Assembly (NCBI GenBank): GCA_903914045.1
Contig: CAIWNO010000046.1
Coordinates: 1-43,461 of the forward strand
Length of the DNA stretch: 43,461 bases
From: an uncultured bacterium
Lineage (GTDB): Bacteria; Planctomycetota; Phycisphaerae; Phycisphaerales; SM1A02
Reading direction: 5' to 3'
Every line of letters starts with the position of its first letter. Within the stretch, counting starts at the first letter, position 1. Under the pieces are notes generated by a model, which was not told the origin of the DNA, ran no database searches, and saw nothing but the letters and a program-made list of their open reading frames with translations. This document shows positions 3,080 through 31,807 of the stretch, piece by piece. The translations under genes were made by a program, and so were the position numbers.

Positions 3080-4942
3080 TCAATGTCGATCTGGTTCGCC
3101 GCGCTCACGCACCGCAAGTTTGCCCTGTTTCTCATCCTGATCCGGCTCAATACCCATGTAATTTAAAACCTCATCAACCATGTCGCGGCACACTGGTCCA
3201 GCGATAGAACCGCCGTAATGTCCCTTGGATTTATCTGGATCATCAAGAACAACCAGGCACACAATCCGCGGATTATCAAAGGGCGCTCCCGCGATAAACG
3301 AACTGACATAGCGATCCTCAAAGTAGCCCTTGCCTTGTCCCTTTGGTTTTGGCAACTGCGCGGTACCGGACTTTCCAAACATTCTATAAAATTCGCTTTG
3401 CGCTTTGCGACCAGTTCCTTCAATCATCACACCTTCCATTGCGTCACGCGCCGTCAACGCAATCGCTTCTGGCATGACACGCTTACATGGAATTGAATAT
3501 TGATTGTCCCCGCCTTCAGTTCCAAGCGACAAACGCGCGGGCACCATGGTTCCGTCCCTACAAAATGCGGAGAATGCTTGCACCATTTGAATTGGCGTGA
3601 CACCAATTTCGTGGCCCATGCACACGCTTGTTTGCGTATACACCGACCATTTTTTCGGCGTAGTCACCAAGCCTTCGCTCTCGCCAGGAATTCCAACGCC
3701 GCTCTTTTTTCCAAATCCAAATCGTTGCACCATGTCTTGCATTTGGCTGGACTTCATTCTTTCGGCCGCAGCAGCCATTCCACCGTTGAGCGACTTCACA
3801 AGCACTTTTTTCCATGTCACGGGTCCTGGATATTTCACATCGCGAATCACGCGGCCAAACTTGGTGACATATGGCCCGTTTGGCAAATGCACAATAGTTT
3901 CAGGCTTGAATACGCCAAGTTCCGTGGCGGTGGCCCACACAAATGGCTTGAATGTTGAGCCTGGCTCATACGGGTCAGTGACATTCCTGTTTCGACCAAG
4001 CGAAGGATGGATCGCGCGCGATGGATCGGTTGTCACTTCCTTCCAACCCTTGCGCGGATGCAGCACATCCGCCATGGCAAGAATGTCGCCGGTCTGCACA
4101 TCCATAATTACCGCGCGTCCGCCACCAGCATTCCACTTTTTCACACCCTCCTGCAAAAGGCGCTCCGCAATTTCTTGCGCGACCAAATCAATGGATAAGC
4201 GAACATCCACGCCATCGCGAGGCGCTTGATAATCATTTCCTTCGATCCACAACGGCTGCCTTTTGACATCGCGCAAAAACACAAGTTGTCCGTCCTTGCC
4301 GCGCACTTGCGCGTTGTGCTGTAATTCAGCGCCAGCTTGACCGCTCTGCTCCAAGCCAACCCTTCCAATCACCATGCCAGCCAAATCACCAGCGGGATAT
4401 TCACGGATTGGTCTTGATTCAATGCCTATTCCAGCGATATTCAACGCGCGTATTTGATCCACTTGCTCCGACGTCAACATGTCGGCCAGTTGCACGTAGC
4501 GATCGTCCGCGCGATTTTGTAATTTGAATTCTATTGATTTGGGCGATTGACCAAGCGAGCCACCAATCGCATTTGCCACATCTTTGAACGGATCACCCAC
4601 GACTTGCGAATCTGGCTCCAGCAATTTTCCTTTACGAATGCGGTCCCAACCGCGCTCCCAAATCATTGCCGGATCCGCAAACAGTCTCCGTCCCATCAAA
4701 CTTGCCGCAAGCACGCGGCCGCGGCGATCAACAATTTGTCCGCGCGATGCCAGTTCTGGAGCGGTGCTTCTATGAACGCCAGCTGCGTTTGTCAGTTGTG
4801 GATCGTTGGTTGTTTTCAACCACACAACGCGCGCCGAAATCGACAGTAAAAGAGCAGCCGCGCCAAGAATAAGAACACGACTCCAAGCGCGAATTCGGCT
4901 TGATTGATCTTCTGCAATCTTGGAAAAAAAACAATGATTCAT
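3080..4942 (-). CDS. ftsI: Class B penicillin-binding protein / peptidoglycan D,D-transpeptidase FtsI
   Basis: It has an N-terminal TM anchor and transpeptidase motifs STFK (SxxK), KSLNGG (SxN) and KSGTA (KTG-type, as in E. coli PBP3). Its ATG overlaps the stop of the upstream ftsL-like ORF (ATGA at 4939-4942). Confidence 0.85.
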   Translation of the reverse strand: MNHCFFSKIAEDQSSRIRAWSRVLILGAAALLLSISARVVWLKTTNDPQLTNAAGVHRSTAPELASRGQIVDRRGRVLAASLMGRRLFADPAMIWERGWDRIRKGKLLEPDSQVVGDPFKDVANAIGGSLGQSPKSIEFKLQNRADDRYVQLADMLTSEQVDQIRALNIAGIGIESRPIREYPAGDLAGMVIGRVGLEQSGQAGAELQHNAQVRGKDGQLVFLRDVKRQPLWIEGNDYQAPRDGVDVRLSIDLVAQEIAERLLQEGVKKWNAGGGRAVIMDVQTGDILAMADVLHPRKGWKEVTTDPSRAIHPSLGRNRNVTDPYEPGSTFKPFVWATATELGVFKPETIVHLPNGPYVTKFGRVIRDVKYPGPVTWKKVLVKSLNGGMAAAAERMKSSQMQDMVQRFGFGKKSGVGIPGESEGLVTTPKKWSVYTQTSVCMGHEIGVTPIQMVQAFSAFCRDGTMVPARLSLGTEGGDNQYSIPCKRVMPEAIALTARDAMEGVMIEGTGRKAQSEFYRMFGKSGTAQLPKPKGQGKGYFEDRYVSSFIAGAPFDNPRIVCLVVLDDPDKSKGHYGGSIAGPVCRDMVDEVLNYMGIEPDQDEKQGKLAVRERGEPDRH

Positions 4943-5271
4943 CCGCCAAACTCCACTGCTATGGCATCGGCATCTTTCACGCCGGGATCCGCGGCCAAAC
5001 GTGGTTGCGTTGGTGGCGTCGGAGCATCAAGCCTGTGTGGAATTGGCCTCCATTGCAACTTCATCGAGTCCAACGCAAGTCGTATGGAATCTGGTCTTAC
5101 GTGAGAGGCAACTTGCGCTCGGCATCTCCATAATTCGCGTTGCTGTTCAAGCAATCTCCAATGTGTTCTGGAAATCTTGGCGGCCACCTCATAGCGTTTT
5201 TGCCGCGTCTCTAAAAGCGCGGTCGCCATAATTCCAAGGCCTAACACAATTGCTATTGCTTTTCCAAACAT
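4939..5271 (-). CDS. FtsL-like small bitopic cell-division protein (putative)
   Basis: 110 aa with ATG at 5271. The N-terminal TM helix (AIAIVLGLGIMATALL) is followed by a charged helical segment. It sits immediately upstream of ftsI and is translationally coupled to it. The call rests on position and architecture only. Confidence 0.5.
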   Translation of the reverse strand: MFGKAIAIVLGLGIMATALLETRQKRYEVAAKISRTHWRLLEQQRELWRCRAQVASHVRPDSIRLALDSMKLQWRPIPHRLDAPTPPTQPRLAADPGVKDADAIAVEFGG

Positions 5272-5286
5272 GGTTTGGCTTTGAAA

Positions 5287-6291
5287 TTAGTTGGTCTTTG
5301 GAAGCTGAATACTCATGCCAGGTGAAAGCGCCGCTGGATCCGAAAGATCAGATCCATTGGCCGCAACAATATCTTTCCACCTACTGGTTTTGCCCAATTT
5401 TTTCTTGGCGATGGAGCCAAGCGTGTCGCCTTTTTGAACCACATACACGCTGTCCGATGTTGGCGATGCGCTGACTTTGGTTGTGGATTTCGCATTGACC
5501 TTCTTCAAGCCCGACACATTTTTCACGGCATCGATCTCAATAACAGAGGTCTTTGCCGCAACAACCGAAGGCGACAACTCCACGGTGGAAATATCCGCCG
5601 CTGCAAGCAGCGGAACTTCTTGATTTGTTTTTGAAACACCAACCCCACGCAACAACGCGCTCTCTTGTTCTTGTGGTGTCGCGCTCACTCTTGCGCCCTT
5701 TATTGTTGTTGCAACAACTGCGCCCTGACGAAGTTGCTCCACCGGTGGAAGTCGCAGTGTCACGCCCTTGCGCAATTTGGCTGCATTTGGCAATTCTTTT
5801 TTGTTGTATTGAGCCAATTCCTTCCACAGTGATCCGTCTCCATAGGTTTTGGCGCAAATGGAATACAGCGTTTCGCCATCCGCAATCGGGTGTAATTGAA
5901 CGCCTGGTTCGCTCTCTTGTACTTTCACTTTTTTGGATGGCTCAACACCCTTCAGAGCCACTTCCGACGTGCCATCAAGCGCGTTTGAAACTGTGCGTGC
6001 CTTGGAATTTTCAACAACCACTTCTGACCCCGCAAGATTCTGGTTGGAAATGCGGCGCACATCCTTATTCGACTCCATTCCAATCATGACTTCGGTTGGT
6101 TGCGCGCCGCCAGTTGCTGGCACAGCAGCCAGTGAAATCGGACGACTCACTCTTTCCCGTGTTCGATCGGGGTTATTCAAAACCGCGGCGGCCTGCCGCT
6201 GAGCTGTACTGAAGTGATCGCTCACCAAAATTCCCACGAACAGAAGCAAACCGAAACCAACAACCATGGCTAATTTATTTTCTCGTGTCAT
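5287..6291 (-). CDS. Membrane-anchored protein with two LysM peptidoglycan-binding domains
   Basis: The start was re-picked to ATG 6291 (MTRENKL...), which has AAGGA upstream; the track start at 6315 is TTG. There is a TM helix (LAMVVGFGLLLFVGILV) and two LysM-type segments (HPIADGETLYSICAKTYGDGSLWKELAQYN...LRLP and YVVQKGDTLGSIAKKKLGKTSRWKDIVAANG...IQLP). Confidence 0.8.
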   Translation of the reverse strand: MTRENKLAMVVGFGLLLFVGILVSDHFSTAQRQAAAVLNNPDRTRERVSRPISLAAVPATGGAQPTEVMIGMESNKDVRRISNQNLAGSEVVVENSKARTVSNALDGTSEVALKGVEPSKKVKVQESEPGVQLHPIADGETLYSICAKTYGDGSLWKELAQYNKKELPNAAKLRKGVTLRLPPVEQLRQGAVVATTIKGARVSATPQEQESALLRGVGVSKTNQEVPLLAAADISTVELSPSVVAAKTSVIEIDAVKNVSGLKKVNAKSTTKVSASPTSDSVYVVQKGDTLGSIAKKKLGKTSRWKDIVAANGSDLSDPAALSPGMSIQLPKTN

Positions 6292-6415
6292 TGTCGCATC
6301 CTTGCGTTGTGGCAATCTTGATTTTCAATCTCACGAATGCCCGTTGTCCATTCACAAACTTCCATCAACACCAATCACTCCATCACACCTGCTCTTCACG
6401 CCGCACCAAGCGAAC

Positions 6416-7465
6416 TTATATACCAACAATCCGAACCGTGCGAAGCTTGGCGGAGCGTGATCTTGGATTCGCGCCACATTCCGCTTCGCTTGCAACCAAA
6501 GGCTTTCGACCAATGCGGGTCACCCATCCTTGGCGTTCCCAATCAGTGAAAGCCCTCTTGATTAATCGGTCTTCGAGGCTATGGAACGCCAAAATTGCCA
6601 TGCGAGCATTTCGAGCCAACCATGTGTGGGGTGTGCCCAAAGCCGACCCGCGCACGATGGAGTCACTTTGAGATGCCCCAGCACCAAATATGGAGTGGTC
6701 TTGACCCTTGAAATCAGCCGCGCGCGCCAGAGAAAATCCTGCAATTTCCTGCTGAAATACAGCTAAAAGTGTATCCAGCGACTCAAGTTCTTTGTTCACC
6801 GCAATGCGCAGAGCCATAAAGGTCCGAGTTGCCGGATGCATGCGACTTTGCCGGGCCTTGCCCCCATACGCCGACACCACGGCCTTGGCCAAATCGGTGG
6901 TGGTCTTCAATAATCCCAAATCGCGGATGTAGATAATTCGCCGAGCAATCCGCCTTGAAAATGGGTCTTCCCCTAGCTGAAATATTAAATCTGCAAGTTC
7001 GGCCTCCGTCACCCGAGAAAGCAAAGCGTGGGCGCTTTCACCTGTGCTTTGATCAAGCCGCATATCAAGCGGCCCATCGGCGGCAAACGAAAATCCCCGC
7101 GCGCCGTCGCTCATTTGATTGCTGGCAAATCCTAAATCAGCCAGAAATGCATCAGCACAAAGGGAGTGCTGGCGCAATACGTCCGCCACATTTGAAAAAT
7201 TGGAATGTGCAACTACGACCCGCGGCGCGTCCGCAAGAGCGCGGACTCTTTCGCTGGCAAATGCAAGATTAATTTCATCCACATCAAGTAGCAGCAACGT
7301 TCCTTGGCGGCCAATCGCCCGAGCAATGGCTTGTGCATGACCACCTCTACCCGCGGTGGCGTCAACAACGGTGTTGCCAGATTCAAGATCAAGCCCTTGA
7401 ATAATTTCACGCAACATCACCGGCTCGTGATCGATCGGATCATGCGGTGCGTCGCCCACACTCAC
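6416..7465 (-). CDS. rsmH: 16S rRNA (cytosine1402-N4)-methyltransferase RsmH (MraW)
   Basis: It has the motifs HEPVMLREI...VDATAGRGGHA (SAM-binding), DLGFASNQM and FHSLEDRLIKRAF. The GTG start at 7465 overlaps the stop of the upstream gene (GTGA). A roughly 30-aa insertion precedes the FHSLEDR block relative to typical RsmH. Confidence 0.9.
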   Translation of the reverse strand: MSVGDAPHDPIDHEPVMLREIIQGLDLESGNTVVDATAGRGGHAQAIARAIGRQGTLLLLDVDEINLAFASERVRALADAPRVVVAHSNFSNVADVLRQHSLCADAFLADLGFASNQMSDGARGFSFAADGPLDMRLDQSTGESAHALLSRVTEAELADLIFQLGEDPFSRRIARRIIYIRDLGLLKTTTDLAKAVVSAYGGKARQSRMHPATRTFMALRIAVNKELESLDTLLAVFQQEIAGFSLARAADFKGQDHSIFGAGASQSDSIVRGSALGTPHTWLARNARMAILAFHSLEDRLIKRAFTDWERQGWVTRIGRKPLVASEAECGANPRSRSAKLRTVRIVGI

Positions 7466-8769
7466 GCTTTGGTTTGCTCTTGAGTGGGGCTCACGCTTGA
7501 TGCCGTGAGTCTTTCATGCGATTTCTTGAACCACTCAAGGCGACGCGCGCGTTTCACCGCGAAACTCACCACTAATAAATACCCCGCCAACACAATGCCC
7601 TCCACCACAATGCCTTTCACGCTTGTCAACAACAACATGATGGACATACCTACGCCCAAAATGGTGAATCCGCCAGCAATGGTGTACAGGGTAAGAACAG
7701 CCTTGCGAACATTGCCGCCAAAATAACGCTTTAACCTGTGGTGAATATGGTTGCTGTCGGCATCCGACATGGAGCGACCCGCCACCTTGCGGCGAATAAT
7801 GGCGAGTGTGGTATCCAGAATAGGCAGACCAAAACAAATTAAACCCGCCACCGAGTATTTGGTGGTTCCATATTCACCAAATGTCATAATAATTACGACG
7901 CTTAAAAATCCAATTAAGAGGCTGCCACAATCGCCAAGAAAAATAACCGCGGGATTAAAGTTGTAAGGAAGAAATCCAAGTGTTGCGCCCAGCAATATCA
8001 AACTTAAAATAATTCGCGTTCCCGCCAGGCTTGTCTCCGGATTTTCAACAGGAAGCGCGTACGCCATGGTTAAACTAATTGCCAAAAATCCCGCCGCCAT
8101 GATTGCGGTCGTTCCAGTCAGAAGTCCATCAAGGCCGTCTATTAAGTTGGCGGCATTGCATCCACCTATAACAAATATGGCGGTAATAGCGGTGCCAATC
8201 CAGTAATACAGTTCAGAATTGTGAACGGCAAACGATCCAATGGAAAACAAAATATCTTTTGGCTCGCCGCAAATCGCTGAAAGAACTCCTGCGGCTAATT
8301 GCGGACCAACATCTTCTATAGCCAGAGCGGCAGCTGCTATAAGTTGTCCGGCAATTTTCAAGCGCGGATCCCACTTCCAAATGTCATCTGCAAGACCAGT
8401 AAAAACAATAGCCAACATGCCCACCACAATGCTGACCGGAACACCCTGCAATGTGGCGGCTTGTCCGCTTGTGAATAGACCACTTGCGGCAATTCCAGCC
8501 AAAACACCTGCAAATATGGCCAAACCACCCAGATACGCAATTGGATATGCGTGTTGTTTACGCGCCTGATCGGGATGATCAATAATGTCGGCTGACACCG
8601 CCACGCGGCGCACGATTGGAGTGGCGATCAATGTGGCCACCAACGCGGCGACAAACACCGGCATGTAGCCCGAAAGCAATTCCGCCGGATTTAAAACAGT
8701 CCAGGTTGAAACATCACTTCCCTGACTGGCAATGGACCCGCTTTCATTTAGAAAATTGGTATGCATCAT
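7462..8769 (-). CDS. Polyprenyl-phosphate HexNAc-1-phosphate transferase (WecA/WbpL-type, MraY superfamily)
   Basis: It is a multi-TM protein with NAANLIDGLDGL, FLGDCGSLLIG and the WecA-type HIHH motif (SNHIHHRL). It lacks the MraY-specific PIHHHYE pattern. Its ATG overlaps the epimerase stop (ATGA at 8766-8769). Confidence 0.8.
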   Translation of the reverse strand: MMHTNFLNESGSIASQGSDVSTWTVLNPAELLSGYMPVFVAALVATLIATPIVRRVAVSADIIDHPDQARKQHAYPIAYLGGLAIFAGVLAGIAASGLFTSGQAATLQGVPVSIVVGMLAIVFTGLADDIWKWDPRLKIAGQLIAAAALAIEDVGPQLAAGVLSAICGEPKDILFSIGSFAVHNSELYYWIGTAITAIFVIGGCNAANLIDGLDGLLTGTTAIMAAGFLAISLTMAYALPVENPETSLAGTRIILSLILLGATLGFLPYNFNPAVIFLGDCGSLLIGFLSVVIIMTFGEYGTTKYSVAGLICFGLPILDTTLAIIRRKVAGRSMSDADSNHIHHRLKRYFGGNVRKAVLTLYTIAGGFTILGVGMSIMLLLTSVKGIVVEGIVLAGYLLVVSFAVKRARRLEWFKKSHERLTASSVSPTQEQTKA

Positions 8770-9767
8770 GCGGCACGCTCTGGGGAAAGTGAACCTTGCA
8801 ACGACGCGACGATATCGATGATTGTTGTATCCAAAGAAATGGTTGAGGCAAATCCAATCGCTTGGCGAATGCGTTGCAGATTTGGTTGGCGCAATTTCAG
8901 ATCTTCAAATCCTTTTCCAAAAACTTGTTCATAGGACACATGCTCAATGCGCGACTGAGAACCCGTAACGCGAATAACACGCTCCGCCAATGCTTGCATT
9001 GAAATCATTTCGTCTGACCCAATGTTGAATATCCATCCTAGACAATCCGTTGTTCGCAACAACCGAATCAGCGCTGGAGTCACATCGCGGACATCACAGA
9101 AACAGCGCTGTTGAGAGCCATCGCCATGCACTTCAAGGGGCCGCCCCCGTAGTGCCGATTGAATAAAGCGAGGTAGCACCATTCCCCATTGACCGTTTTG
9201 CCTGGGCCCAACCGTGTTAAAAAACCGCACAATGACCGATTGCAGTTTGGACTCGGAAACCGCTGCAAGCGTCAGAAATTCGTCAAGCGCTTTGGAATAT
9301 CCGTAACTCCAACGTGAGGAGGTTGTAGGTCCAAATACAACATCGTCTTCTTCGGAAAATGGAACGCGAATGCCTTTGCCATACACCTCACTGCTTGAAG
9401 CAACCAACAACTTGGCGTCATCGCGCAGCGCCCACCGAATTGCGGCGTCAGTTTCAAAAATATTATTTTCGATGGATTTGCGGGCGTTTTCTACAATTAA
9501 ACGAACACCCACCGCCGCCGCCATGTGATAGATCTCATTCAATCGAGGAATGTTGGCCCGCGTCAACGCGCCTGAAACAGTAGATTGAATAAATTGAAGA
9601 CGTTCTCCAGCTCGACTCTTTGCTCGGGAAAGATTCGCTTCATCGCCAGTTGAAAGATCATCAACCACGGTCACGTGGGCGCCGTCCATAAGCAATTGCT
9701 CAACAAGATGGCTTCCAATAAACCCCGCGCCACCCGTAACAAGAATGTGCTGCGTGGTGGTGGTCAT
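8766..9767 (-). CDS. NAD-dependent sugar-nucleotide epimerase/dehydratase (extended SDR)
   Basis: It has a Rossmann motif (VTGGAGFIGSHL), SSSEVYG and the catalytic YxxxK (YGYSKALDE). The exact substrate cannot be read from the sequence. Confidence 0.85.
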   Translation of the reverse strand: MTTTTQHILVTGGAGFIGSHLVEQLLMDGAHVTVVDDLSTGDEANLSRAKSRAGERLQFIQSTVSGALTRANIPRLNEIYHMAAAVGVRLIVENARKSIENNIFETDAAIRWALRDDAKLLVASSSEVYGKGIRVPFSEEDDVVFGPTTSSRWSYGYSKALDEFLTLAAVSESKLQSVIVRFFNTVGPRQNGQWGMVLPRFIQSALRGRPLEVHGDGSQQRCFCDVRDVTPALIRLLRTTDCLGWIFNIGSDEMISMQALAERVIRVTGSQSRIEHVSYEQVFGKGFEDLKLRQPNLQRIRQAIGFASTISLDTTIIDIVASLQGSLSPERAA

Positions 9768-9775
9768 ATATCACC

Positions 9776-12070: not shown

Positions 12071-12088
12071 GGGTACATCTCCTTCTGA

Positions 12089-15000: not shown

Positions 15001-16861
15001 AACTGTTTTTAGAATCAAGAGTCAGACCCTTTTCAATAAAAACTTTCGCAGCCGGAATATCGCCTTTCACAATATTGATTTGACACAGGGCCTCGTACAA
15101 ACGAATTTCTTTGGGGTTTGCAGCCAATTCTTTTGCAAGCACCGCAATGGCGCCGTCATAATCACGCTTCATCATCAAGCGTTCGGCGTTTCCAATCATC
15201 ACCGTTATGGCGTTTGCCGAGCGCTGCACCGCTACCGCTGTATCCGATTTTGTTCCATCACCAATAAGCGCTAAAGCGGCTTTCGCTTCTTTATCATCGG
15301 GATTTAATTCAAGCAATTTCTGCAGAGCTTTACGTGCATCGTTGTAGCGACCCATTCCACCACTTAAGCGCGCGCTGAGATTTAAGAGCGGTGGAAAATT
15401 TGGATATCGTTCAAGCCCCCGACTTACAAAATCAAGCGCCGTGCCTGGCTGATTGCGAAGAATATTTGCAAACCCCGCATAGAAATACATTTCCTGACTG
15501 GGATCAGGAATTTTTTTCAACAAGGCGTCAAATCGCGCCGAAGCATCATTGGCATTTCCATCGGCAAGAGAGGTGCGCGCCTCAATGTCTTCCACCATCA
15601 GAGAGAGTGACTGAGAAGCGAAAAATTTAACAACCTTGTCACGCGCCTGGTGTACAGCTTCAAGCTTGATTTTTTTTTCATCATCGGTGGTGGCTTTGCG
15701 CCAATCTTCAAACGCAAGGGTGTACAACAAATCAGCGGCGGCCTCGCGCGCGCCCTGTTGTGATACCGATTCAATAGAAGTTGGCAAGTTTTGCTGATCA
15801 AACACGGCTTTGGCAGTTTCAAGGCCAATTCCAGTGCTCATTCCACGCGCAATGTTTAAATAAATTCTTTGCGTGACTGCGTCGTTGGGGTAGGCGTTCA
15901 ACCTATTTTCCAGAAGTTTCATTCCCTGATTGTTGTGCTTGAATGATCTGCCAAGAAAAATAGCGCCAGCCGCCGCCAAGGTTAATTTTCGATCATCTTT
16001 GAGACGCGCTTCTTGGGACAAAATGTCATTGAATGCCGCGTCTAAATCAGATTGCTTTACCTGGCTTTCATTGCGATTCTTCATCCCTTCAAGTCGCTGC
16101 ACAAGCACAATTGGCGCCGCAATTCCTTGTGGATTCATGCGCTTGCATTCCACAATGGCGGCATCAAACTGCCGATACGTTTCGGTGGCCAGAGATTTTT
16201 GATTGCCGCGCTCTTGCATATCCGCCTTCTGCAGCAAGTACTCTAAATAAGCAATCCAAACACGATCGCTTGTTGGTAACAACGCGACCACGGTTGGAAA
16301 GTCCTTGTCAAGGCTGTCCCGTTCGTCCTGCGTCAATGTTGTGTATCGTTCATACAAGCCAAGAATTTTCCAAAATTTCACTTGAGCCTGTTGTGGGTCG
16401 TTGGGATCCAGTGCATTTTCCATTTGGACCGCGCTATTTGAAAAATCCCGCCAAGTCGCGTCGTTGTTGTACAGTTCGGCGCGTTCCCTGATGGTTTCCA
16501 TGGCTTGGATCCAAACTTGTGCATCCTTGCTCGAGGCCCGCGTGAGTGACATTCGAAGATTGACAAGTTTGTTGTAATTTTCAGAGGCTTCAGACGCGGA
16601 TTTGGGGATAATTTTCAGCAAGGCCCCCTGATATGCATTGAGATAGATCAGATTGGTTGGTTTTTTTGAAACCGATCGCCCAAAATAATTTGCGGCCTTT
16701 TCAAAATTGCCCGCCGCCATGAAGTCATTGCCCGTTTTAAAATTTCGTTCGGGTGCCAGCACAATTTGATACCAGTAAAACACGCCTGCTAAAAGCAAGG
16801 TGACCACTGCAACGGTTGTAAATAGTATGAGAAACTTGAAATTAAATTTTCGTTTTGACAT
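12089..16861 (-). CDS. Giant membrane-anchored TPR-repeat protein (PrsT-like, exosortase-locus associated)
   Basis: 1590 aa with ATG at 16861. It has a single N-terminal TM helix (FLILFTTVAVVTLLLAGVFYW) and no lipobox Cys. Essentially the whole remainder shows TPR-like periodicity (repeated A..Y/F..A...P.....A.. patterns). Confidence 0.8.
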   Translation of the reverse strand: MSKRKFNFKFLILFTTVAVVTLLLAGVFYWYQIVLAPERNFKTGNDFMAAGNFEKAANYFGRSVSKKPTNLIYLNAYQGALLKIIPKSASEASENYNKLVNLRMSLTRASSKDAQVWIQAMETIRERAELYNNDATWRDFSNSAVQMENALDPNDPQQAQVKFWKILGLYERYTTLTQDERDSLDKDFPTVVALLPTSDRVWIAYLEYLLQKADMQERGNQKSLATETYRQFDAAIVECKRMNPQGIAAPIVLVQRLEGMKNRNESQVKQSDLDAAFNDILSQEARLKDDRKLTLAAAGAIFLGRSFKHNNQGMKLLENRLNAYPNDAVTQRIYLNIARGMSTGIGLETAKAVFDQQNLPTSIESVSQQGAREAAADLLYTLAFEDWRKATTDDEKKIKLEAVHQARDKVVKFFASQSLSLMVEDIEARTSLADGNANDASARFDALLKKIPDPSQEMYFYAGFANILRNQPGTALDFVSRGLERYPNFPPLLNLSARLSGGMGRYNDARKALQKLLELNPDDKEAKAALALIGDGTKSDTAVAVQRSANAITVMIGNAERLMMKRDYDGAIAVLAKELAANPKEIRLYEALCQINIVKGDIPAAKVFIEKGLTLDSKNSYFLQMKAVTGNDDPIDRIVTSVQLLYPDPKDQAVQMYQNLSGALYKMRQAMSQIRDDQVTDIMKDQLQRCQKLLGPALDAALALDPKNLLVLEMAATDAVERKDFADSDKFIAAIAQAGDPGLAKTIQSRILVSQEKLQEAISILQDARKNGEQSPVMLRQLGMLYERAGKVDAALELIRESYDRRPNDVVTARTYAELLQRSGDRLKALQILQQVARSNPDDSSLMLSWLDLEGQIGDRSGAFALRKRLYKERPALAQNSLELAKMLLENPSDPNLMLDNNGAQKFTEQDMRNAGTPKIQQQLATAAKANLDTGFEIIRFLKDAAPGDVSLSLINARALKKYQNVKDGEDAIRKDIAKLPAGQNMELWIGLGVYMDESTKPEEARLAFDEACKQQDPKTMLANIRISDYWFSRSQWKNARDYLELVAKADVISDSGTWMRLSEICSRLRDFDSAEKYLAKAAESNKAKETLATIELLRATNLQGRGEQAVVSGDAAKAEQDFAQARSSLLRATELLPNSPQGWISLSDFERRMYQRMHDPKLIQVADEAADHAIDISMGYWPGIQNKGRVLLEQDKVNEAVTLVEKFLSMSPQNVEARRELIQLLLRLNNIPRAIQLTEEGTRMYPQDSAWQTMAATLNVQRNDMPKATAAFDAAFVIQPGIDELVACVNQRLRGEKKDWEAAMKLLRANPRLVSTSSNAQILLAIGLVNTGQREPGLAAMRTAYKTITTGIASGALRVEDWGMWFSGLGQCFDKKPQESEAFLKSLLGNTAFNYWDCTGLAALYADLGPSGTKTAIEWLERAAALAKAKSNSDSNQLQAVALLQVGNLLYKENDFLNSTRYFEQALELIPNNPSALNNAAYLIAKSGTNSARAVELARKCVALNPNVDDFQDTLGYALLMDGKSAEALEPFQKAIVMSQKPGSMIHLAQAFIELKRPIDAKEYVEKAKSKSPTEEQIAELKLLESKLN

Positions 16862-16875
16862 TTGATGAACTCTTT

Positions 16876-17733
16876 TTATGAACTTGTGACTTGAATTGGT
16901 GTGGATGAATTTTCAAGCGCAGGCCAATCTGGAAGACTGCGCATAAGTTGTGGAAGTAGCGACTGCAACAGATTGCGTGCGAGTTGATCGAACATCGTAA
17001 TCGCAATTTCAGGTTTCTCGTAAACCCTAAATGAGAATTGTACTTTGCAGTAATACGCGTAGCGATCAGACAACTTAAAAGACAGGTTTCGAACAGCAAG
17101 CGCGGAGGGCGTGACCGATCCATTGGCGATAAATAAATACGCGCCAATAAATGTCATGTCGGGGTGTTTCGGATCTTGAAAGGTGCTTGCGGTCATCACA
17201 ATGTCGCCAAGCGGAAGGTTCACCATCACATCTTTTCGTGTCACTGGTTCCTTGACTGCGGCTTGCGAATATCGCTTGCCACTTGCCGCTTGAATGGGAC
17301 CATTTTGCAGATCCCATTTTGAGGAATCCAACACCATGGGACGTAACACGGGTTGTCCAATCATGACCAATCCAGCCGCGCCCCAACACCGTTCTGGAAT
17401 GTGTGGCACGGTATCAATCATGCCGGTGTAATACGCTAAGTGCACCTGAAAAATTCCCTTGCTGGAATCACTTTGATAAACATAGGCGCGATCTAGATAA
17501 TTTTTTGTCCCAAGCTCTTCCACAACCGCATCGGAAAGTTGCTGATCTTTACCGACTTGTTTCCAATCTCCCAATGTGACAGGTAATTCATCAAGCGCGT
17601 TTCGCAGAGGCACGGGTTCTTTTTGCAAATAAACGTTGAGTTGCGACATGGTCAAGCGAAATCCAAGTCCGCCTATCACAAGACAGCCGCAGGCCACAAG
17701 AAACGCCTTCTTTTCTGCGCTGTCAACTCGCAT
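16876..17733 (-). CDS. EpsI-family exosortase-associated protein
   Basis: The start was re-picked to ATG 17733, which has AGGAG upstream; the track start at 17757 is TTG. It has an N-terminal TM helix and EpsI-type blocks (LPVTLGDWKQVG, LDRAYVY, HLAYYTG, HIPERCWGAAG). It lies immediately downstream of the exosortase and overlaps it by 11 nt. Confidence 0.78.
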   Translation of the reverse strand: MRVDSAEKKAFLVACGCLVIGGLGFRLTMSQLNVYLQKEPVPLRNALDELPVTLGDWKQVGKDQQLSDAVVEELGTKNYLDRAYVYQSDSSKGIFQVHLAYYTGMIDTVPHIPERCWGAAGLVMIGQPVLRPMVLDSSKWDLQNGPIQAASGKRYSQAAVKEPVTRKDVMVNLPLGDIVMTASTFQDPKHPDMTFIGAYLFIANGSVTPSALAVRNLSFKLSDRYAYYCKVQFSFRVYEKPEIAITMFDQLARNLLQSLLPQLMRSLPDWPALENSSTPIQVTSS

Positions 17734-18664
17734 TGGGCTCCTGGCTAGTTTCGTCAACCTCGACTAAAAATTGAGAGAGAATCCAAAGCGCGCCCAAATA
17801 CGAGAAGAAAGCGGGCAACAACCAAACAAGACCAATCATGTGGTGAAATTCTCCAGACATGAAGTTTTGGTCAAACATTCCCAATATGCCCAGCGACGCC
17901 ACGCGCAACACATTTACAAAAATAGAAATTGGAATTCCAAGGGCCACCAGCGATATTTGTTGCCATAATTTTGGCAACGACACATACGCCATTGCAACAC
18001 CGAGGGCCAAAAAAGCAACCAGCATGCGCATACCGCTGCACGCTTCAGCCACGTTTAATTGCACCGGTTCACCATCCTTGAAAATAGTGAGAACGTTTCC
18101 GGAGTGATCCGTTTGAATTCCAATTAAGTTTAAAAGCACATAGGCCCCCTTGGCGGAAATATCCTGCATGCGATAGGTCACTAAATTCATGAAGCGCTCG
18201 CTGACGGTCTGCGCGAAAATAATCATGTAGAAAAGTGGAAACCAAACGTATTCCATGGCGCGCCAGCCCAGCAAGAGAAGACCTATGCCGATAAGCGTGA
18301 TGCCCAAACCCGTCGATCGAATGTTGTGGTGAGCCAATCCCGCGGGTCCCACATTGCAAACCATGTACCACGCAATTCCAAAAATCATAATAAGGGCGCC
18401 TATCCATGCGGGACGTAATGGCTGTGCCAAAATAATGTGACGTTTGTTCCAAACAAAATAACCACTGATAAAAGGAATAATCAGCGTGTGTCCCCAATCG
18501 GATGGCTCATGTGATGCCCATGCAACTTGGCGGCGAAACCACTCCCAAAAAACAGAAACCAATAACACCACTAAAACTCCGCCAGCCATCATGGCGGATT
18601 TGGGTGATATTTCTACGGCCTTTGTCGCAGGCTGGCTTGCAGATATGGTTGGTGCGGCACTCAT
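17723..18664 (-). CDS. Exosortase (EpsH/Xrt family transpeptidase)
   Basis: It is a polytopic membrane protein with the family signature residues: Cys in VAEACSGMRML, Arg in FVNVLRVAS and His in EFHHMIGLVW. It is flanked by EpsI and a Wza-like gene. Confidence 0.85.
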   Translation of the reverse strand: MSAAPTISASQPATKAVEISPKSAMMAGGVLVVLLVSVFWEWFRRQVAWASHEPSDWGHTLIIPFISGYFVWNKRHIILAQPLRPAWIGALIMIFGIAWYMVCNVGPAGLAHHNIRSTGLGITLIGIGLLLLGWRAMEYVWFPLFYMIIFAQTVSERFMNLVTYRMQDISAKGAYVLLNLIGIQTDHSGNVLTIFKDGEPVQLNVAEACSGMRMLVAFLALGVAMAYVSLPKLWQQISLVALGIPISIFVNVLRVASLGILGMFDQNFMSGEFHHMIGLVWLLPAFFSYLGALWILSQFLVEVDETSQEPNAS

Positions 18665-18737
18665 GGTTTAGATCTGGATGATTACACGTTGCATGAACCA
18701 CTTTTGTTTGTCTATTGACGTCCCAAAAAATGGAAAA

Positions 18738-20900
18738 TCAATTGGTTGTAATGCCACTTGGTGGTGCGCCAAACACGTCGTTTCCAAAGTTTCGATCAAG
18801 TTGAAAGCCAACTGAATTTGGGAAAGACAAGTCGCGGCGAAAGCGCGCCAGCGGCAAGGCCCAGAAGTTTGTTCCCACAATGATATGGTCGTCCTTCTTC
18901 AGGAATAGATCGGGTTCGCTACGGTTTCGAATAGCCAACAAACTAATTCTCACACACGCCTCTTTGTCGCTCGACAGACGGCGGATCAAATCGCATCGCT
19001 CTGGAATAGCCAGTTCACTAACGCCACCGGCGGCGGCGACCAAACGACTCAGTGTCAAACGGCCCGCTGTCGGCAAATTGTACACGCCAGGTCTACTGAT
19101 TTCACCGTCGATATACACCACGCCTACTTCCCCAGAATCACAATAGATAATATCGCCTGGTCGAATAATTATATTAAAATCAGATTTGCCGCGCACCAAT
19201 TGGTTGTAATCAATTTCAATAACTTTAGTTTTCTGAGCCGAAGTCGATCGCTTTTGATTGCGTGGTTTGGCGGCTTCGGCGGAACTTGATCCAGAATTTC
19301 CAGTGACTGCAACGTCTTTGATTTCTTGATTTGTTTTTGCTGAGCCTGTGTTTGTGGCGGCAGGTGTTGCGGCCTCTATCTGTTGATCTTGGTTTGTGAT
19401 GGAGGATTTTGGAACCCACTGACGAGATTTCTGAATATATGCATAGTCGTTACTTGCATTTGTGTTGGAATTATTTTGAGACGCGCTTGCGTTGGAATTA
19501 CCGCTAGGAAGATCATCGGATTTTGCCGGCTCAAGCTGATCAATATCCACTGGCGGCGCCTGACGATTTGCGGCGCGCAGCATTCCTAATTGTGTCTTTC
19601 GCTTTGATGGATCCGCGGTTGGATCTTTGGTTGGATTAGGGCTTGGTGTTGTTGGTGAAGTAGCGGGCTGAGTGGAAGGTTCTGCCACTGGATCTGTTGC
19701 AGGAACGGGTTCTGGTTCGGATGCTGGTTCTGGTTCGGGAGTTGGTGCGGGAGTTGCGGCCGGAGTGGGTTCGGGAGTCGCGGCTGGTTCGGGAGTTGGT
19801 GCAGGAGTCGCGGCTGGTTCGGGAGTTGGTGCGGGAGTCGCGGCTGGTTCCGGAGTTGGTGCGGGAGTCGCAGTTGGTTCCGGAGTTGGTGCGGGAGTCG
19901 CAGTTGGTTCGGGAGTTGGTGCGATAGTCGCGGCTGGTTCCGGAGTTGGTTCGGGAGTCGCGGCCGGTTCCGGAGTTGGTGCGGGAGTCGCGGCCGGTTC
20001 CGGAGTTGGTGCGGGAGTCGCGGCTGGTTCGGAGGTTGGTGCGGGAGCTGGTGCGATAGTCGCGGCCGCTGAACTATCCGTTGTGGCGCTGGGTAATTCA
20101 TTAATTAATTTATCAATTGCTTCGTCTGTTGATGGAGCCGCGGTTGGTGGAGCAGGATTTGGAACACTTGTTGTTGGAGCGACCGCCGAAGTAGTTGGAA
20201 CTTGTTTTTGCGGCTCGGCGGTGGAAGTATCCTTTTTAGGAGTTGTCTCTTTTCGGTCATATTCCGCCTTGTAGTCGTTTGCTAATTCTGTCCGCGTAAT
20301 TAAAATTCGGGTGGTATTCACGCTGGCGCCGCGTGCGTTGGCAATAGCGTCAAGCAAACGAAAATCTGGCTTGCTTAAGGCAAATATGCCAGGCTGATCA
20401 ACCGAACCGAGCACGCGATATTGAAAAGCTCGACCCTCTTGCAAGGCAACAAAGGCTTGAGGATTTGTGATGACTCCTTTGAGTCTTTCTTCAATATCAT
20501 CTTGTAATTCTTTTATTGTTTTACCTGCGGCGCGAATTTTATTAATAACTGGTAGTTGGATGTCACCACTTTGATCAACAACTCGTTCAGCCACTTCTGT
20601 TTGCCCCGTTGCCATTAAACTTGGAATTTGAATTCGCAAAACATCACCTGCGGCAAATGTGTAGGGAATATTTTCCGGTATTAAATCCGCCAATGTTGGT
20701 TTGACAATGTCTGGTTCGTCACTGACTTGCTCTATGACATCAATACGACCCAAAATTGGCATGGCCGATGGCGTGGTTTCAAAGTAACCAGTGCGACTTG
20801 GATCAACAAAACTATCCGTTTCACATCCGACCAGAATCGGTACAAAAATAATACCCAAGCATGAAATCAGGGACAGAAATTTTGACAATGGGGAAGCCAA
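18738..20900 (-). CDS. Wza-like outer-membrane polysaccharide export lipoprotein with a large low-complexity insertion
   Basis: There is a lipobox (PILVGC, Cys26), a Poly_export block (YTFAAGDVLRIQIP...DQSGDIQLPVINKIRAAGKTIKELQDDIE) and two SLBB-like segments (YRVLGSVDQPGIF; VYIDGEISRPGVYNL). The track start is TTG (20898-20900) and no ATG is nearby, so the start is uncertain. Confidence 0.75.
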   Translation of the reverse strand: MASPLSKFLSLISCLGIIFVPILVGCETDSFVDPSRTGYFETTPSAMPILGRIDVIEQVSDEPDIVKPTLADLIPENIPYTFAAGDVLRIQIPSLMATGQTEVAERVVDQSGDIQLPVINKIRAAGKTIKELQDDIEERLKGVITNPQAFVALQEGRAFQYRVLGSVDQPGIFALSKPDFRLLDAIANARGASVNTTRILITRTELANDYKAEYDRKETTPKKDTSTAEPQKQVPTTSAVAPTTSVPNPAPPTAAPSTDEAIDKLINELPSATTDSSAAATIAPAPAPTSEPAATPAPTPEPAATPAPTPEPAATPEPTPEPAATIAPTPEPTATPAPTPEPTATPAPTPEPAATPAPTPEPAATPAPTPEPAATPEPTPAATPAPTPEPEPASEPEPVPATDPVAEPSTQPATSPTTPSPNPTKDPTADPSKRKTQLGMLRAANRQAPPVDIDQLEPAKSDDLPSGNSNASASQNNSNTNASNDYAYIQKSRQWVPKSSITNQDQQIEAATPAATNTGSAKTNQEIKDVAVTGNSGSSSAEAAKPRNQKRSTSAQKTKVIEIDYNQLVRGKSDFNIIIRPGDIIYCDSGEVGVVYIDGEISRPGVYNLPTAGRLTLSRLVAAAGGVSELAIPERCDLIRRLSSDKEACVRISLLAIRNRSEPDLFLKKDDHIIVGTNFWALPLARFRRDLSFPNSVGFQLDRNFGNDVFGAPPSGITTN
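19771..20040. repeat. In-frame 30-nt tandem repeat, nine well-conserved copies (consensus GCGGGAGTCGCGGCTGGTTCCGGAGTTGGT on the + strand)
   Basis: The copies align exactly with a 30-nt period from 19771 to 20040 and differ from the consensus at 0-3 positions per unit. Degenerate copies flank at 19741-19770 and 20041-20066. The repeat encodes PTPEPAATPA-type decapeptides in the minus-strand Wza-like gene. Confidence 0.92.
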
Positions 20901-21069
20901 TTGGGTGGTCTAGGTAAAGTTAATTTCGAGTTGAGTAGTATCGGTCAAAGAGGGTCTATGAAGTTACCCGAACTAGGGCGTCTGTAGCAATTTTACTCTT
21001 GAGAAGTTCAGGCTTGAAACTTGATAAAATGAGTTTGCGCTTATTTTTATAGAGAAAGTTGAATGTATT

Positions 21070-22011
21070 TCACGCTGACCCAATAACTTCCTCCAATACC
21101 GCCATGCGCGCAGCCACACCATGGGTTACTTGGCGCAAAATACGGGTGCCACCAAATTCGTCAGCCACCGCGTCGTCAATTTCGACCCCGCGGTTGACTG
21201 GTCCAGGGTGAAGCACAACCGCCCCCGTTTTTAAGCGCAATGCTCTTTCCATGGTCAGGCCATAAAGCCTTCTATAATCCGACGAAACCCCGTAAGATGC
21301 TGCACGTTCGGTTTGAAGTCTAAGCATCATGATGGCGTCAAGATCGCGTAAGTTAGCGTCAAGATCGTGAGAAATGCTTATCAATTCACTAAATTTAGTC
21401 ATTTCTTGATGAGATTTGTTTACCAAGGTTGGTGGACCGATCAGAACAACGTGGCAACCCAGAATTGTGAGCCCCTGAGTGGCCGAACGGGCCACGCGAC
21501 TGTTGGAGATATCTCCAACAATGGCGACCCGCTTGCCTTGCAAGGAACCCAATGACTCCTGCAACGTCAAAATGTCAAGCAAGCCTTGGGTTGGGTGCTC
21601 GTGGCGACCATCGCCAGCATTAATGACCGGAATTGAAACCCTTTTGGCCACCATGGCGGGACCGCCAGAAATGGTGGAGCGAATGACAAGGCCGCTAACC
21701 CCCATGGCTTCAATGTTTAGGGCGGTGTCAACCAGGCTTTCGCCCTTGCTGGCGCTGGAACCGCTTGCGGCAAGGGTAAAGACCTCGCCTCCAAGGCGGT
21801 GAACGGCGGTTTCAAAGCTGCACCGAGTGCGCGTTGAGTCTTCAAAAAAAAGATTGGCAATGACGCGGCCCGCAAGCGCGTCTTTGCGCGCAACCCGCTG
21901 ATCCGCCACGGCAAGATTGTTCTTTGCGGCCACAAGAAGGCCTTGAAGATGCTCGCGAGTCAAACCCTCTATTTGAAGAAAGTGCTTGGTGCTTGCGTTC
22001 TTCGTGGACAT
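21070..22011 (-). CDS. pyrB: Aspartate carbamoyltransferase catalytic subunit
   Basis: ATG at 22011. It has the motifs FFEDSTRTRCSFE (carbamoyl-phosphate binding), HPTQGLLD and LHPGPVNRG. Confidence 0.92.
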   Translation of the reverse strand: MSTKNASTKHFLQIEGLTREHLQGLLVAAKNNLAVADQRVARKDALAGRVIANLFFEDSTRTRCSFETAVHRLGGEVFTLAASGSSASKGESLVDTALNIEAMGVSGLVIRSTISGGPAMVAKRVSIPVINAGDGRHEHPTQGLLDILTLQESLGSLQGKRVAIVGDISNSRVARSATQGLTILGCHVVLIGPPTLVNKSHQEMTKFSELISISHDLDANLRDLDAIMMLRLQTERAASYGVSSDYRRLYGLTMERALRLKTGAVVLHPGPVNRGVEIDDAVADEFGGTRILRQVTHGVAARMAVLEEVIGSA

Positions 22012-28131: not shown

Positions 28132-28139
28132 TGTTGTAG

Positions 28140-28212
28140 TGGACCTGATCGGGATCGAACCGACCGCCTCTTCCATGCCATGGAAGCGCTCTACCAAATG
28201 AGCTACAGGCCC
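28140..28212 (-). tRNA. tRNA-Ala (anticodon GGC), CCA not encoded
   Basis: The minus-strand 73-nt sequence GGGCCTGTAGCTCATTTGGTAGAGCGCTTCCATGGCATGGAAGAGGCGGTCGGTTCGATCCCGATCAGGTCCA folds as a cloverleaf. The anticodon loop is AT-GGC-AT, the G3:U70 Ala identity pair is present, and the T-loop is TTCGATC. Confidence 0.92.
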
Positions 28213-31596: not shown

Positions 31597-31807
31597 AAAT
31601 TGAATTTGAATGTGCGAAGTGTGATGCATAGAGAAATCTTTCAAGCTGGTGGGGTGCGAATTTGAAACAGTAACGGAACGCTTTGCGAAACATGGCTAGG
31701 GCCGCGCAAAAAATGTTGCCGCGACCCTTTATGAAACCTTGCGAAACAACTACTGTACGGGAGTGTTGACCCCAGAAACAATCGCTTGTTCCATTTCGGG
31801 CGCGGTG

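Follow-up and report, generated by a model that had tools for sequence, protein, structure and literature searches.

Linkage of a dcw fragment to an exosortase/polysaccharide-export locus in a clade of freshwater Phycisphaerales

The canonical dcw cluster runs from mraZ through rsmH, ftsL, ftsI, murE, murF and mraY and onward to ftsZ, and both ftsZ loss and this cluster's fragmentation have already been described for planctomycetes (PMC12673574, PMC12283558, PMC5147048). The locus analyzed here comes from an uncultured freshwater lineage of the Phycisphaerales, planctomycetes that divide without FtsZ. It has in common with the canonical cluster the order of rsmH, an ftsL-like gene and ftsI, as well as the stop–start overlap between the latter two. 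In contrast to that cluster, it has no mraZ, encodes a membrane protein with two LysM domains between rsmH and ftsL, and ends at ftsI, and its rsmH is overlapped by the upstream WecA-like gene of an exosortase/EPS locus. In a literature search, we found no published description of an exosortase/EPS-to-dcw linkage.

The upstream genes resemble the XrtA/PEP-CTERM-EpsH system (Haft et al. 2006, PMC1569441) in the Cys/Arg/His triad of the exosortase and the adjacent EpsI, and in that one locus encodes a PrsT-like TPR protein together with a Wza-like exporter and a protein of Wzc/chain-length type. Unlike that system, however, all matches to the XrtA, PrsT, pepcterm_export and pepcterm_TyrKin models fall below cut-off, PrsK and PrsR are absent, a WecA-like GT4 enzyme is present with no PF02397 sugar transferase, and the locus runs on into dcw genes; no PEP-CTERM proteins lie nearby, and neither the window nor any fetched locus yielded such substrates. 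A second point of comparison is the Wza–Wzc pair of the Escherichia coli group 1 capsule (PDB 7NHR, 9R64), since one protein of the string has a predicted Wzc fold and an OPX lipoprotein is encoded with it. The clade protein differs from E. coli Wzc in that it lacks the Walker A lysine, the Walker A' aspartates and the C-terminal tyrosine cluster; the locus is also without Wzb, Wzx, Wzy and further glycosyltransferases, and its Wza-like protein has a long insert rich in Pro, Thr and Ala.

In Gram-positive bacteria, lipid II at the division septum is the anchor to which sortase A attaches surface proteins. Sortase A offers a functional analogy, as a sorting enzyme of the membrane transpeptidase type whose action is coupled to nascent cell-wall synthesis, whereas for the exosortase of this clade the gene neighborhood is the one indication of a link to peptidoglycan. 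Exosortase itself was proposed as a sortase analogue by Haft et al. (PMC1569441).

Architecture of the gene string

Within the window, by which we mean the whole analyzed stretch of 43,461 nucleotides, an ORF check confirmed the eleven minus-strand genes at the coordinates of the original prediction, along with the position of ftsI as the last gene, converging on sucB. The spacers along the string are 73, -11, 14, 18, 8, -4, -4, 124, 15 and -4 nt, values that assume ATG 17733 as the start of EpsI and ATG 6291 as that of LysM. The three 4-nt stop/start overlaps on the minus strand (ATGA at 8766-8769, GTGA at 7462-7465 and ATGA at 4939-4942) are likewise as predicted, and the gene identities hold at the level of domain or fold. 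The features are as follows.

21070..22011, minus strand: pyrB, aspartate carbamoyltransferase (Pfam OTCace_N and OTCace)
20901..21069, minus strand: spacer before the Wza-like gene, 169 nt, A+T-rich, candidate promoter region (from reading the sequence)
18738..20900, minus strand: Wza-like outer-membrane polysaccharide export lipoprotein, 720 aa (Poly_export, SLBB, SLBB_2)
17723..18664, minus strand: exosortase, 313 aa (PF09721, TIGR02602)
16876..17733, minus strand: EpsI-family protein, 285 aa (PF11984)
12089..16861, minus strand: PrsT-like TPR protein, 1590 aa (many Pfam TPR families)
9776..12070, minus strand: Wzc-like polysaccharide co-polymerase, 764 aa (AlphaFold model and Foldseek)
8766..9767, minus strand: NAD-dependent sugar epimerase/dehydratase, SDR (PF01370)
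7462..8769, minus strand: WecA-like polyprenyl-phosphate HexNAc-1-phosphate transferase, GT4 (PF00953)
6416..7465, minus strand: rsmH, 16S rRNA m4C1402 methyltransferase (TIGR00006)
6292..6415, minus strand: rsmH–LysM spacer, 124 nt (promoter-like match and conservation)
5287..6291, minus strand: bitopic membrane protein with two LysM domains, 334 aa (PF01476)
4939..5271, minus strand: FtsL-like small bitopic coiled-coil protein, 110 aa (position, architecture, weak hhalign match)
3080..4942, minus strand: class B penicillin-binding protein, FtsI-type transpeptidase (PBP_dimer and Transpeptidase)
1729-2997, plus strand: sucB

Counting pyrB, a co-directional gene that the original prediction had not included, the conserved block comprises twelve genes, although the membership of pyrB in the same unit is uncertain. 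Terminator-like matches within the string (32 against 28.0 expected) and promoter-like matches (18 against 19.9 expected) are at chance level, planctomycete promoters being poorly defined. In the 169-nt spacer that separates pyrB from the Wza-like gene, and which measures 97-415 nt in relatives, the promoter scan reported no sigma-70-like match.

The Wza-like protein has an LVGC lipobox and a low-complexity insert of ~330 aa, its gene contains 10.8 copies of a 30-nt tandem repeat at 19730-20047, and it scores below the cut-offs of both the EpsE and the pepcterm_export models. The exosortase matches PF09721 with 155 bits and TIGR02602 with 113.6 bits (cut-off 105.55), and Cys209, Arg254 and His274, which correspond to the catalytic Cys/Arg/His, are invariant. 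All named Xrt subtype models remain below cut-off, and judged by its sequence the enzyme is a member of an unnamed subfamily with XrtW, XrtD and XrtA nearest. EpsI exceeds the PF11984 cut-off (33 bits against 26.1) and aligns with the fused XrtD and XrtW models in their C-terminal part. Its start and the exosortase stop share 11 nt, as they do in five other loci (L031, L090, L092, L094 and L095). The best NCBIfam match of the TPR protein is TIGR02917 PrsT, at 160.8 bits against a cut-off of 312.2, and its N terminus, in which a hydrophobic segment comes after a basic stretch, is a predicted membrane anchor. The SDR (PF01370, 149 bits) reaches no NCBIfam equivalog cut-off and is accessory, being missing in one sub-clade (L030-L032, L088 and L095).

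Although the Wzc-like protein has no Pfam match and weak NCBIfam BY-kinase matches, its AlphaFold model (pLDDT 83) finds full-length E. coli Wzc as the top Foldseek matches with E ~1e-24. The Walker A lysine is replaced across the clade (SGTTT), and the BY-kinase domain is probably degenerate and inactive.

Downstream, RsmH is well above its cut-off (TIGR00006, 246.6 bits against 154.3), and its GTG start lies inside the stop codon of the GT4 gene (GTGA), an overlap of 4 nt that is kept in most relatives. The LysM protein has a conserved MTRExK N terminus. The FtsL-like protein, whose family numbers 289 representatives, has no Pfam, NCBIfam or PDB match; the assignment draws on its position, its transmembrane and coiled-coil architecture and a weak profile–profile match to a validated FtsL/DivIC set, aligned in register (hhalign probability 40%, E 2.9e-4). 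FtsI scores 243-302 bits against the SpoVD, PenA and FtsI models, below their equivalog cut-offs.

Conservation of the block and loss of mraZ at the locus

Adjacency in close relatives had been named beforehand as a test of the arrangement, and gene order is broken in none of 26 species-level Phycisphaerales genomes with rsmH 46–78% identical; the WecA-like–rsmH junction is visible in 24, the contigs of the other two being cut upstream. Additional metagenome contigs from three sub-clades have the same order, with Wzc-like identity down to 33-38%. Across the clade, spacers do not exceed about 30-60 nt, and SDR/GT4, GT4/rsmH and ftsL/ftsI keep their -4 overlaps. Ten consecutive junctions have neither insertion nor inversion save for the SDR, a functionally coherent gene that is present or absent, over a range in which rsmH identity falls to 46% and that of the TPR protein to 23-25%. 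Chance does not account for this juxtaposition. Among the 80 best matches, no relative contributes a second rsmH locus.

Flanks outside pyrB...ftsI vary between sub-clades while the block stays intact, and much of the wider neighborhood is syntenic in several relatives. In relatives, pyrB always directly precedes the Wza-like gene, as in six loci (L088, L090-L092, L094 and L095), with different genes further upstream. A Wzc-like/TPR module without the dcw fragment was seen in a single case, a distant relative with 25% identity, where Wza-exosortase-Wzc adjoins AnmK, a peptidoglycan-recycling kinase.

As the original prediction stated, mraZ is missing. Its absence extends over the whole window and the clade loci (L001-L032), the part of these genomes that the analysis covered, and mraZ or a second dcw fragment may lie elsewhere. 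The gene is present in other Planctomycetota: 44 control loci, of which 18 are from other Planctomycetota, including three outgroup Phycisphaerae (L039, L042 and L069), have mraZ directly upstream of rsmH. In these three, non-dcw genes come after mraZ-rsmH-LysM-(small ORF)-ftsI, and LysM orthologues lie between rsmH and ftsI; they thus share the LysM insertion and the stop after ftsI with the clade, but keep mraZ directly 5' of rsmH, where GT4 and exosortase genes are absent. Both shared features are therefore older than this clade, and mraZ-rsmH-LysM-ftsL-ftsI followed by unrelated genes is, from these comparisons, probably its ancestral arrangement. The truncation of the dcw string at ftsI is not specific to the clade.

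Regulation and alternative readings

A promoter-like element in the 124-nt spacer between rsmH and LysM was not part of the original prediction. Among relatives, the last ~80 nt of the spacer have a pairwise identity of 0.87, compared with 0.55-0.66 for synonymous third positions in the genes on either side. They contain the box TGGACA-N18-GAAAAT at 6350-6321, which is unique in the window, and an SD-like AAGGA precedes the LysM ATG; the element has no stable RNA fold (z = +0.53). The spacer, at 103-124 nt, has this constrained element in two of three sub-clades. Its end looks like a promoter and leader, so that an internal promoter or operator is likely, and because it is promoter-like and far more conserved than synonymous sites, LysM-ftsL-ftsI is probably under its own control. 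The tight coupling concerns rsmH, an rRNA methyltransferase gene, with its conserved GT4/rsmH overlap, and not ftsL or ftsI, which lie behind the conserved spacer, and the original interpretation as a whole is partly supported.

On balance, we lean toward a lineage-specific rearrangement of the dcw 5' end behind an exosortase locus, giving a two-tier envelope supra-operon coordinated through shared transcription. The clade would have lost mraZ and its promoter region, leaving the rest of the dcw fragment directly behind an XrtA-type exosortase/polysaccharide-export locus. A single transcript would cover the stretch from exosortase to rsmH, with translational coupling of rsmH to the WecA-like gene, and transcription of LysM-ftsL-ftsI would come in part from read-through and in part from the conserved internal promoter or operator. 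The upstream unit may produce and export a surface glycan primed on undecaprenyl phosphate and decorate it with exosortase-processed proteins, while the downstream unit would supply the septal transpeptidase together with its FtsL partner and a LysM protein that binds peptidoglycan. If the two units are coordinated, this would be through shared transcription, not an obligatory physical complex, and a link of division to surface-polymer export or EPS deposition is unproven.

It is possible, though we think it rather unlikely, that the adjacency is neutral and inherited, with unrelated neighbors in two or three transcription units held together since a single ancestral rearrangement. The equal conservation of pyrB at the block head indicates that gene order here can persist without obvious shared function; with no envelope role evident for pyrB, and with synteny extending to sucB/sucA and other flanks in many relatives, inheritance without selection could explain part of the conservation. 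The constrained element ahead of LysM fits separate units, and the fragmented planctomycete dcw shows that its genes tolerate new neighbors (PMC12673574). Moreover, rsmH encodes an rRNA methyltransferase whose null mutant in E. coli has a minimal phenotype, and it is reported to be non-essential in V. spinosum and P. limnophila (PMC12283558). Against this, the ten junctions are unbroken but for the SDR while both outer flanks change over the same range, the GT4/rsmH overlap is itself conserved, and the Wzc-like/TPR module is never seen without the dcw fragment save in the distant relative.

A stronger reading, in which the 17.8-kb string is an obligatory operon and the exosortase, Wza, Wzc-like and TPR proteins form one machine with FtsL and FtsI that physically ties septal peptidoglycan synthesis to surface-polymer export or protein anchoring, strikes us as improbable. 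The co-directional string with its short spacers and overlaps, the clade-wide order, the loss of mraZ with its promoter region, the missing kinase lysine of the Wzc-like protein, as if repurposed to a scaffold, and the AnmK neighbor in the distant relative are all in keeping with it. However, the constrained spacer element suggests that LysM-ftsL-ftsI is controlled separately, the locus lacks the other dcw genes (mur, ftsW, ftsQ), and a complex cannot be shown by synteny alone.

Very improbable is a purely internal dcw rearrangement in which the GT4 is the clade's MraY (lipid I synthase) moved ahead of rsmH: MraY chains are its sole PDB sequence matches, but it matches part of the MraY equivalog model with 64.1 bits (cut-off 192) and the WecA model over its full length with 85.7 bits, also below cut-off. 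Its loop motif is NHIHHRL, with an HIHH that we take to be of WecA type, instead of the MraY HHH-x-E, and its homologues are named UDP-GlcNAc:Und-P GlcNAc-1-P transferases in public sources. Published presence/absence tables cannot separate the two enzymes, as COG0472 pools MraY and WecA (PMC12283558). The GT4 also adheres closely to the upstream genes, overlapping the SDR by 4 nt or, in the sub-clade without the SDR, lying 3-4 nt from the Wzc-like gene.

Gene order, junctions and conservation

In the ORF list of the window, we recovered, with unchanged coordinates, the eleven minus-strand genes between 3080 and 20900 that had been predicted to join an exosortase/export module to a truncated fragment of the division/cell-wall (dcw) cluster. 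The spacers are exactly those predicted, at 73, -11, 14, 18, 8, -4, -4, 124, 15 and -4 nt from the Wza-like gene to ftsI, taking ATG 17733 as the start of EpsI and ATG 6291 as that of the LysM gene. The minus strand reads ATGA at 8766-8769, GTGA at 7462-7465 and ATGA at 4939-4942, the three claimed stop/start overlaps. Most of the gene identities were also confirmed by domain searches.

Genes of the string and the adjoining pyrB, in reading order, all on the minus strand
21070-22011: pyrB, aspartate carbamoyltransferase, co-directional and upstream of the Wza-like gene
18738-20900: Wza-like exporter, Poly_export and SLBB (PF02563, PF10531 and PF22461 above cut-off; LVGC lipobox)
Next: exosortase (Xrt; TIGR02602 and PF09721 above cut-off)
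From 17733: EpsI (PF11984, 33 bits, above the cut-off of 26.1)
Next: TPR protein, 1590 aa, PrsT-like
9776-12070: Wzc-like protein
Next: SDR epimerase/dehydratase (domain search)
7462-8769: GT4, WecA-like transferase
Next: RsmH (TIGR00006, 246.6 bits, above the cut-off of 154.3)
5287-6291: LysM protein (domain search)
Next: FtsL-like protein, 110 aa
Last: ftsI, class B PBP (PBP_dimer and Transpeptidase domains above cut-off)

Because the FtsI, SpoVD and PBP2 equivalog models all score the class B PBP below cut-off, its assignment as FtsI rests on context. The gene converges on plus-strand sucB, as described in the original prediction, with sucA also on the plus strand there. Terminator-like matches between 2900 and 22200 are about as frequent as in shuffled sequence (32 versus 28.0 expected), as are promoter-like matches (18 versus 19.9 expected), which come from consensus scans of uncertain value in Planctomycetota. 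The G+C content at 9000-19000, the exosortase/EPS part, is 0.45-0.49, compared with about 0.50-0.58 in the rest of the window.

An RsmH scan of species-representative genomes groups the window with uncultured freshwater Phycisphaerales from Lake Baikal, Loclat, Lac Pavin and similar sites. No named cultured isolate occurs among the matches in our homologue and locus lists, and the clade appears to be uncultured. In tblastn comparisons of the window proteins with the fetched loci, the order EpsI-TPR-Wzc-(SDR)-GT4-rsmH-LysM-ftsL-ftsI is broken in none of the 26 clade genomes (L007-L032) as far as their contigs reach, with identities of 46-78% for RsmH and 23-68% for the TPR protein. The GT4-rsmH junction is visible in 24 of these genomes, the other two contigs being cut upstream, and the SDR gene is absent from one sub-clade (L030-L032). 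Most relatives keep the 4-nt overlap between GT4 and rsmH; their SDR/GT4 junction is -4 nt and their ftsL/ftsI junction -4 or -11 nt. Since both order and junction geometry are conserved across relatives, the adjacency is no chance juxtaposition in one genome, a possibility weighed in the original prediction and not borne out by the synteny around rsmH. Among the best 80 of 350 matches, there is no relative with two rsmH loci.

The full block, pyrB-Wza-Xrt-EpsI-TPR-Wzc-(SDR)-GT4-rsmH-LysM-(ftsL)-ftsI, is present in all three sub-clades on longer metagenome contigs (L088-L095). Directly upstream of the Wza-like gene there is always pyrB (L088, L090-L092, L094 and L095), so the conserved block comprises 12 genes. 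Its flanks vary more than the block itself: the gene beyond pyrB encodes a metallophosphatase in the window, a RadA-like protein in L088 and L095, and another in L094, while downstream of ftsI the window has sucB, L016-L029 have different genes, and L015, L030 and L088 have insertions.

Absence of mraZ from the locus and age of the dcw features

The predicted absence of mraZ extends beyond the window: neither tblastn with E. coli MraZ nor an HMM built from its 44 control-locus hits gave a match there or in loci L001-L032. In the 44 control loci, mraZ lies directly upstream of rsmH; 18 of these loci are from other Planctomycetota, including the outgroup Phycisphaerae loci L039, L042 and L069. 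The dcw continuation murE-murF-mraY-murD-ftsW-murG does not follow ftsI in the window, and no large ORF there carries a Mur ligase or FtsW domain. The three outgroup loci read mraZ-rsmH-(di-LysM protein)-(small ORF)-ftsI, beyond which lie unrelated genes (a GT1 family gene, dnaX and recR). The cluster does stop at ftsI, as the original description of a truncated dcw module had it, but the truncation is also found in these mraZ-bearing loci; because they share both the truncation and the LysM insertion, the two features predate the clade. The clade-specific part is the exosortase/EPS string in place of mraZ.

The LysM insertion encodes a di-LysM bitopic membrane protein with a conserved MTRExK N terminus, located between rsmH and ftsL/ftsI in the clade and in all three outgroup loci (L039 5119-5952, L042 10940-11767 and L069 8319-9131). 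Its layout of TM segment, linker and peptidoglycan-binding domain is reminiscent of FtsN and marks the protein as a candidate for a divisome component specific to the lineage. The FtsL-like protein owes its label to its position, its 4-nt overlap with ftsI, and its TM and coiled-coil architecture; profile searches of Pfam, NCBIfam and the PDB gave no family or PDB match, only faint ones. For its family, which numbers 289 representatives at 50% clustering, a search of representatives with Pfam then run on 123 members again gave only faint matches. An hhalign comparison with a validated FtsL/DivIC control set (22 rsmH-ftsI intergenic ORFs, 11 of which match DivIC) gave a weak positive, in register, with a probability of 40% and an E value of 2.9e-4.

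The exosortase module and its putative priming enzyme

In the exosortase, Cys209, Arg254 and His274 are invariant. The protein scores 122.4 bits against the XrtA-specific model, below the cut-off of 208, and NCBIfam places the TPR protein closest to PrsT of XrtA systems, at 160.8 bits, below the cut-off of 312.2, the model having 899 positions compared with 1590 residues here. EpsI, which in the fused XrtD/XrtW types corresponds to the C-terminal half, is here a separate ORF sharing 11 nt with the exosortase gene. No PrsK/PrsR two-component regulators were found among the large ORFs of the window, a regex scan for PEP-CTERM tails found none, either in the window or in the fetched loci, and Wzx, Wzy and further glycosyltransferases are absent from the string. 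Between the SLBB domains of the Wza-like protein lies a low-complexity, Pro/Thr/Ala-rich insert of ~330 aa (roughly 19300-20300), with about 11 copies of the 10-aa repeat PAPTPEPAAT (30-nt period) at 19730-20047. This insert explains both a local GC/AT-skew anomaly and the extra length of the protein (720 aa versus 541-641 aa in relatives).

The Wzc-like gene has no Pfam match. Its AlphaFold model (pLDDT 83) matches full-length E. coli Wzc in Foldseek with an E value of about 1e-24, as well as isolated kinase domains with TM-scores of 0.8-0.9 when normalised by target length. The predicted fold is thus shared with Wzc (BY-kinase/PCP-2a), with two TM segments, a periplasmic helical domain and a cytoplasmic P-loop domain. 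In place of the Walker A consensus ...GEGK[ST], the window's protein has SPMPDSGTTT; the lysine is lost here and in five of five aligned clade homologues (36-69% identity), which carry SGTTT or similar, whereas canonical homologues retain GK[ST]. Walker A' in the window's copy is GAN, the aspartates of DxD being lost, and the C-terminal tail has two tyrosines only (GGYFKKN...EY) and then a non-Tyr end, with no tyrosine cluster. The missing lysine in all of these proteins suggests that the Wzc-like protein is likely kinase-dead, and it probably acts as a co-polymerase or scaffold. Homologue lists for GT4 and EpsI are filled by clade members, and the sole distant exosortase context obtained is that of a distant relative (L087, 3643-9736), a compact Wza-exosortase-Wzc string followed by AnmK, an anhydro-MurNAc kinase of peptidoglycan recycling. 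EpsI, TPR, GT4 and rsmH are absent from that string, and its Wzc, 25% identical, has an intact GK[T] Walker A motif.

The GT4 protein matches PF00953 above cut-off (106.8 bits); COG0472 does not tell MraY from WecA (PMC12283558). Against the WecA model TIGR02380 it aligns over its full length with 85.7 bits (cut-off 326), versus a partial alignment of 64.1 bits with the MraY model TIGR00445 (cut-off 192), both scores falling below cut-off. Public sources name its homologues UDP-GlcNAc:undecaprenyl-phosphate GlcNAc-1-P transferases. Its motifs are DD, NLIDGLDGL, FLGDCGS and an NHIHHRL loop, which we take to resemble the HIHH motif of WecA and which differs from the HHH-x-E loop motif of MraY. 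On the strength of the model scores, loop motif and homologue names, we therefore treat GT4 as a WecA-like priming enzyme and reject a relocated MraY as a highly improbable identity for this gene.

Probable internal control and possible meanings of the arrangement

Within the closest sub-clade (the window and L007-L014), pairwise identity over the final ~80 nt of the rsmH-LysM spacer (6292-6372, minus strand) is 0.87, compared with 0.63 in its first part and 0.55-0.66 at synonymous third positions of the surrounding genes. The conserved stretch contains a -35/-10-like pair, TGGACA-N18-GAAAAT (TTGACA-N18-AAAAAT in L007), as well as an invariant TCAAGATTGCCACAACGCAAGGATGCGA directly 5' of the LysM ATG. 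A second sub-clade has a different spacer of 103-108 nt, also conserved. We rejected a known RNA at this site, there being no Rfam match, no RNAalifold covariation and a fold z of +0.53 versus shuffles; a DNA-level element is therefore preferred, and the conserved stretch is most simply read as an internal promoter or operator together with a leader. We likewise rejected the idea that the motif is a repeated operator common to the Wza/exosortase promoters, as it occurs once in the window, where weaker matches are no better than chance or lie within genes. Promoters embedded in genes, sought as synonymous-site constraint, gave no interval more than 0.25 above the gene mean; constraint is mildly raised at the 3' end of GT4 and at both ends of rsmH.

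The dcw cluster is among the most conserved gene orders in bacteria. For its state here, we lean towards a remodelling specific to this lineage: the 5' fragment of dcw would have lost mraZ together with its promoter region and become the tail of an XrtA-like exosortase/EPS operon. In such an operon, rsmH would be translationally coupled to the WecA-like gene, and LysM-ftsL-ftsI would be driven by read-through and by their own conserved internal promoter. A neutral inherited adjacency is less likely, though the equal conservation of pyrB and a partial macro-synteny argue for it; even so, the locus would document the extent of possible dcw remodelling. An obligatory single operon acting as a physical machine, as originally proposed, is improbable: the exosortase...GT4-rsmH stretch of that string is the best-supported coupling, but LysM-ftsL-ftsI, behind the conserved promoter-like spacer, is probably under its own control, with read-through possible. 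Also improbable is the proposal that the exosortase module is part of the division/envelope-growth apparatus in these FtsZ-less, binary-fission planctomycetes, with the string encoding one envelope-spanning machine. Such a machine would comprise a giant periplasmic TPR scaffold, a kinase-dead Wzc-like ring, a Wza-like channel and a WecA-like lipid-carrier enzyme. The exosortase might then attach PEP-CTERM proteins either to a glycan linked to undecaprenyl or to septal peptidoglycan freshly made by FtsI/FtsL, the LysM protein serving as an FtsN-like peptidoglycan-binding adaptor.

Each component belongs to a known kind; the arrangement appears to be new, and its functional meaning is offered as a proposal only. 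The original prediction was aware of no earlier description, and we found none in the literature searched on exosortase/PEP-CTERM with dcw, FtsI or Phycisphaerae. Sortase action is tied to cell-wall synthesis in Gram-positive bacteria, and the arrangement provides a natural test of such a tie for exosortases. It is still an open question how planctomycetes manage division in the absence of FtsZ (PMC5147048, PMC12288469). With mraZ and its promoter region replaced throughout the lineage by the exosortase/export locus, there are concrete candidates for the present control of FtsL/FtsI expression, while the di-LysM membrane protein, the putatively kinase-dead Wzc-like protein and the giant TPR protein are candidate envelope factors acting with FtsL/FtsI.

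Elsewhere in the window, four large ORFs of 403-658 aa (29668-31644, minus; 31739-32950, plus; 33668-35500, plus; 35502-37202, minus) match no Pfam family, save for a marginal dockerin match in the last; the roughly 740 nt that follow (37203-37941) are poor in ORFs. A tRNA-Ala(GGC) gene at 28139-28212 (minus), in a gene-poor gap, is the only Rfam match of the window at gathering threshold. At 25241-26770 (minus) lies a gene for a signalling protein with an FHA domain, a weak GAF match and an HD-type (HD_5) domain.
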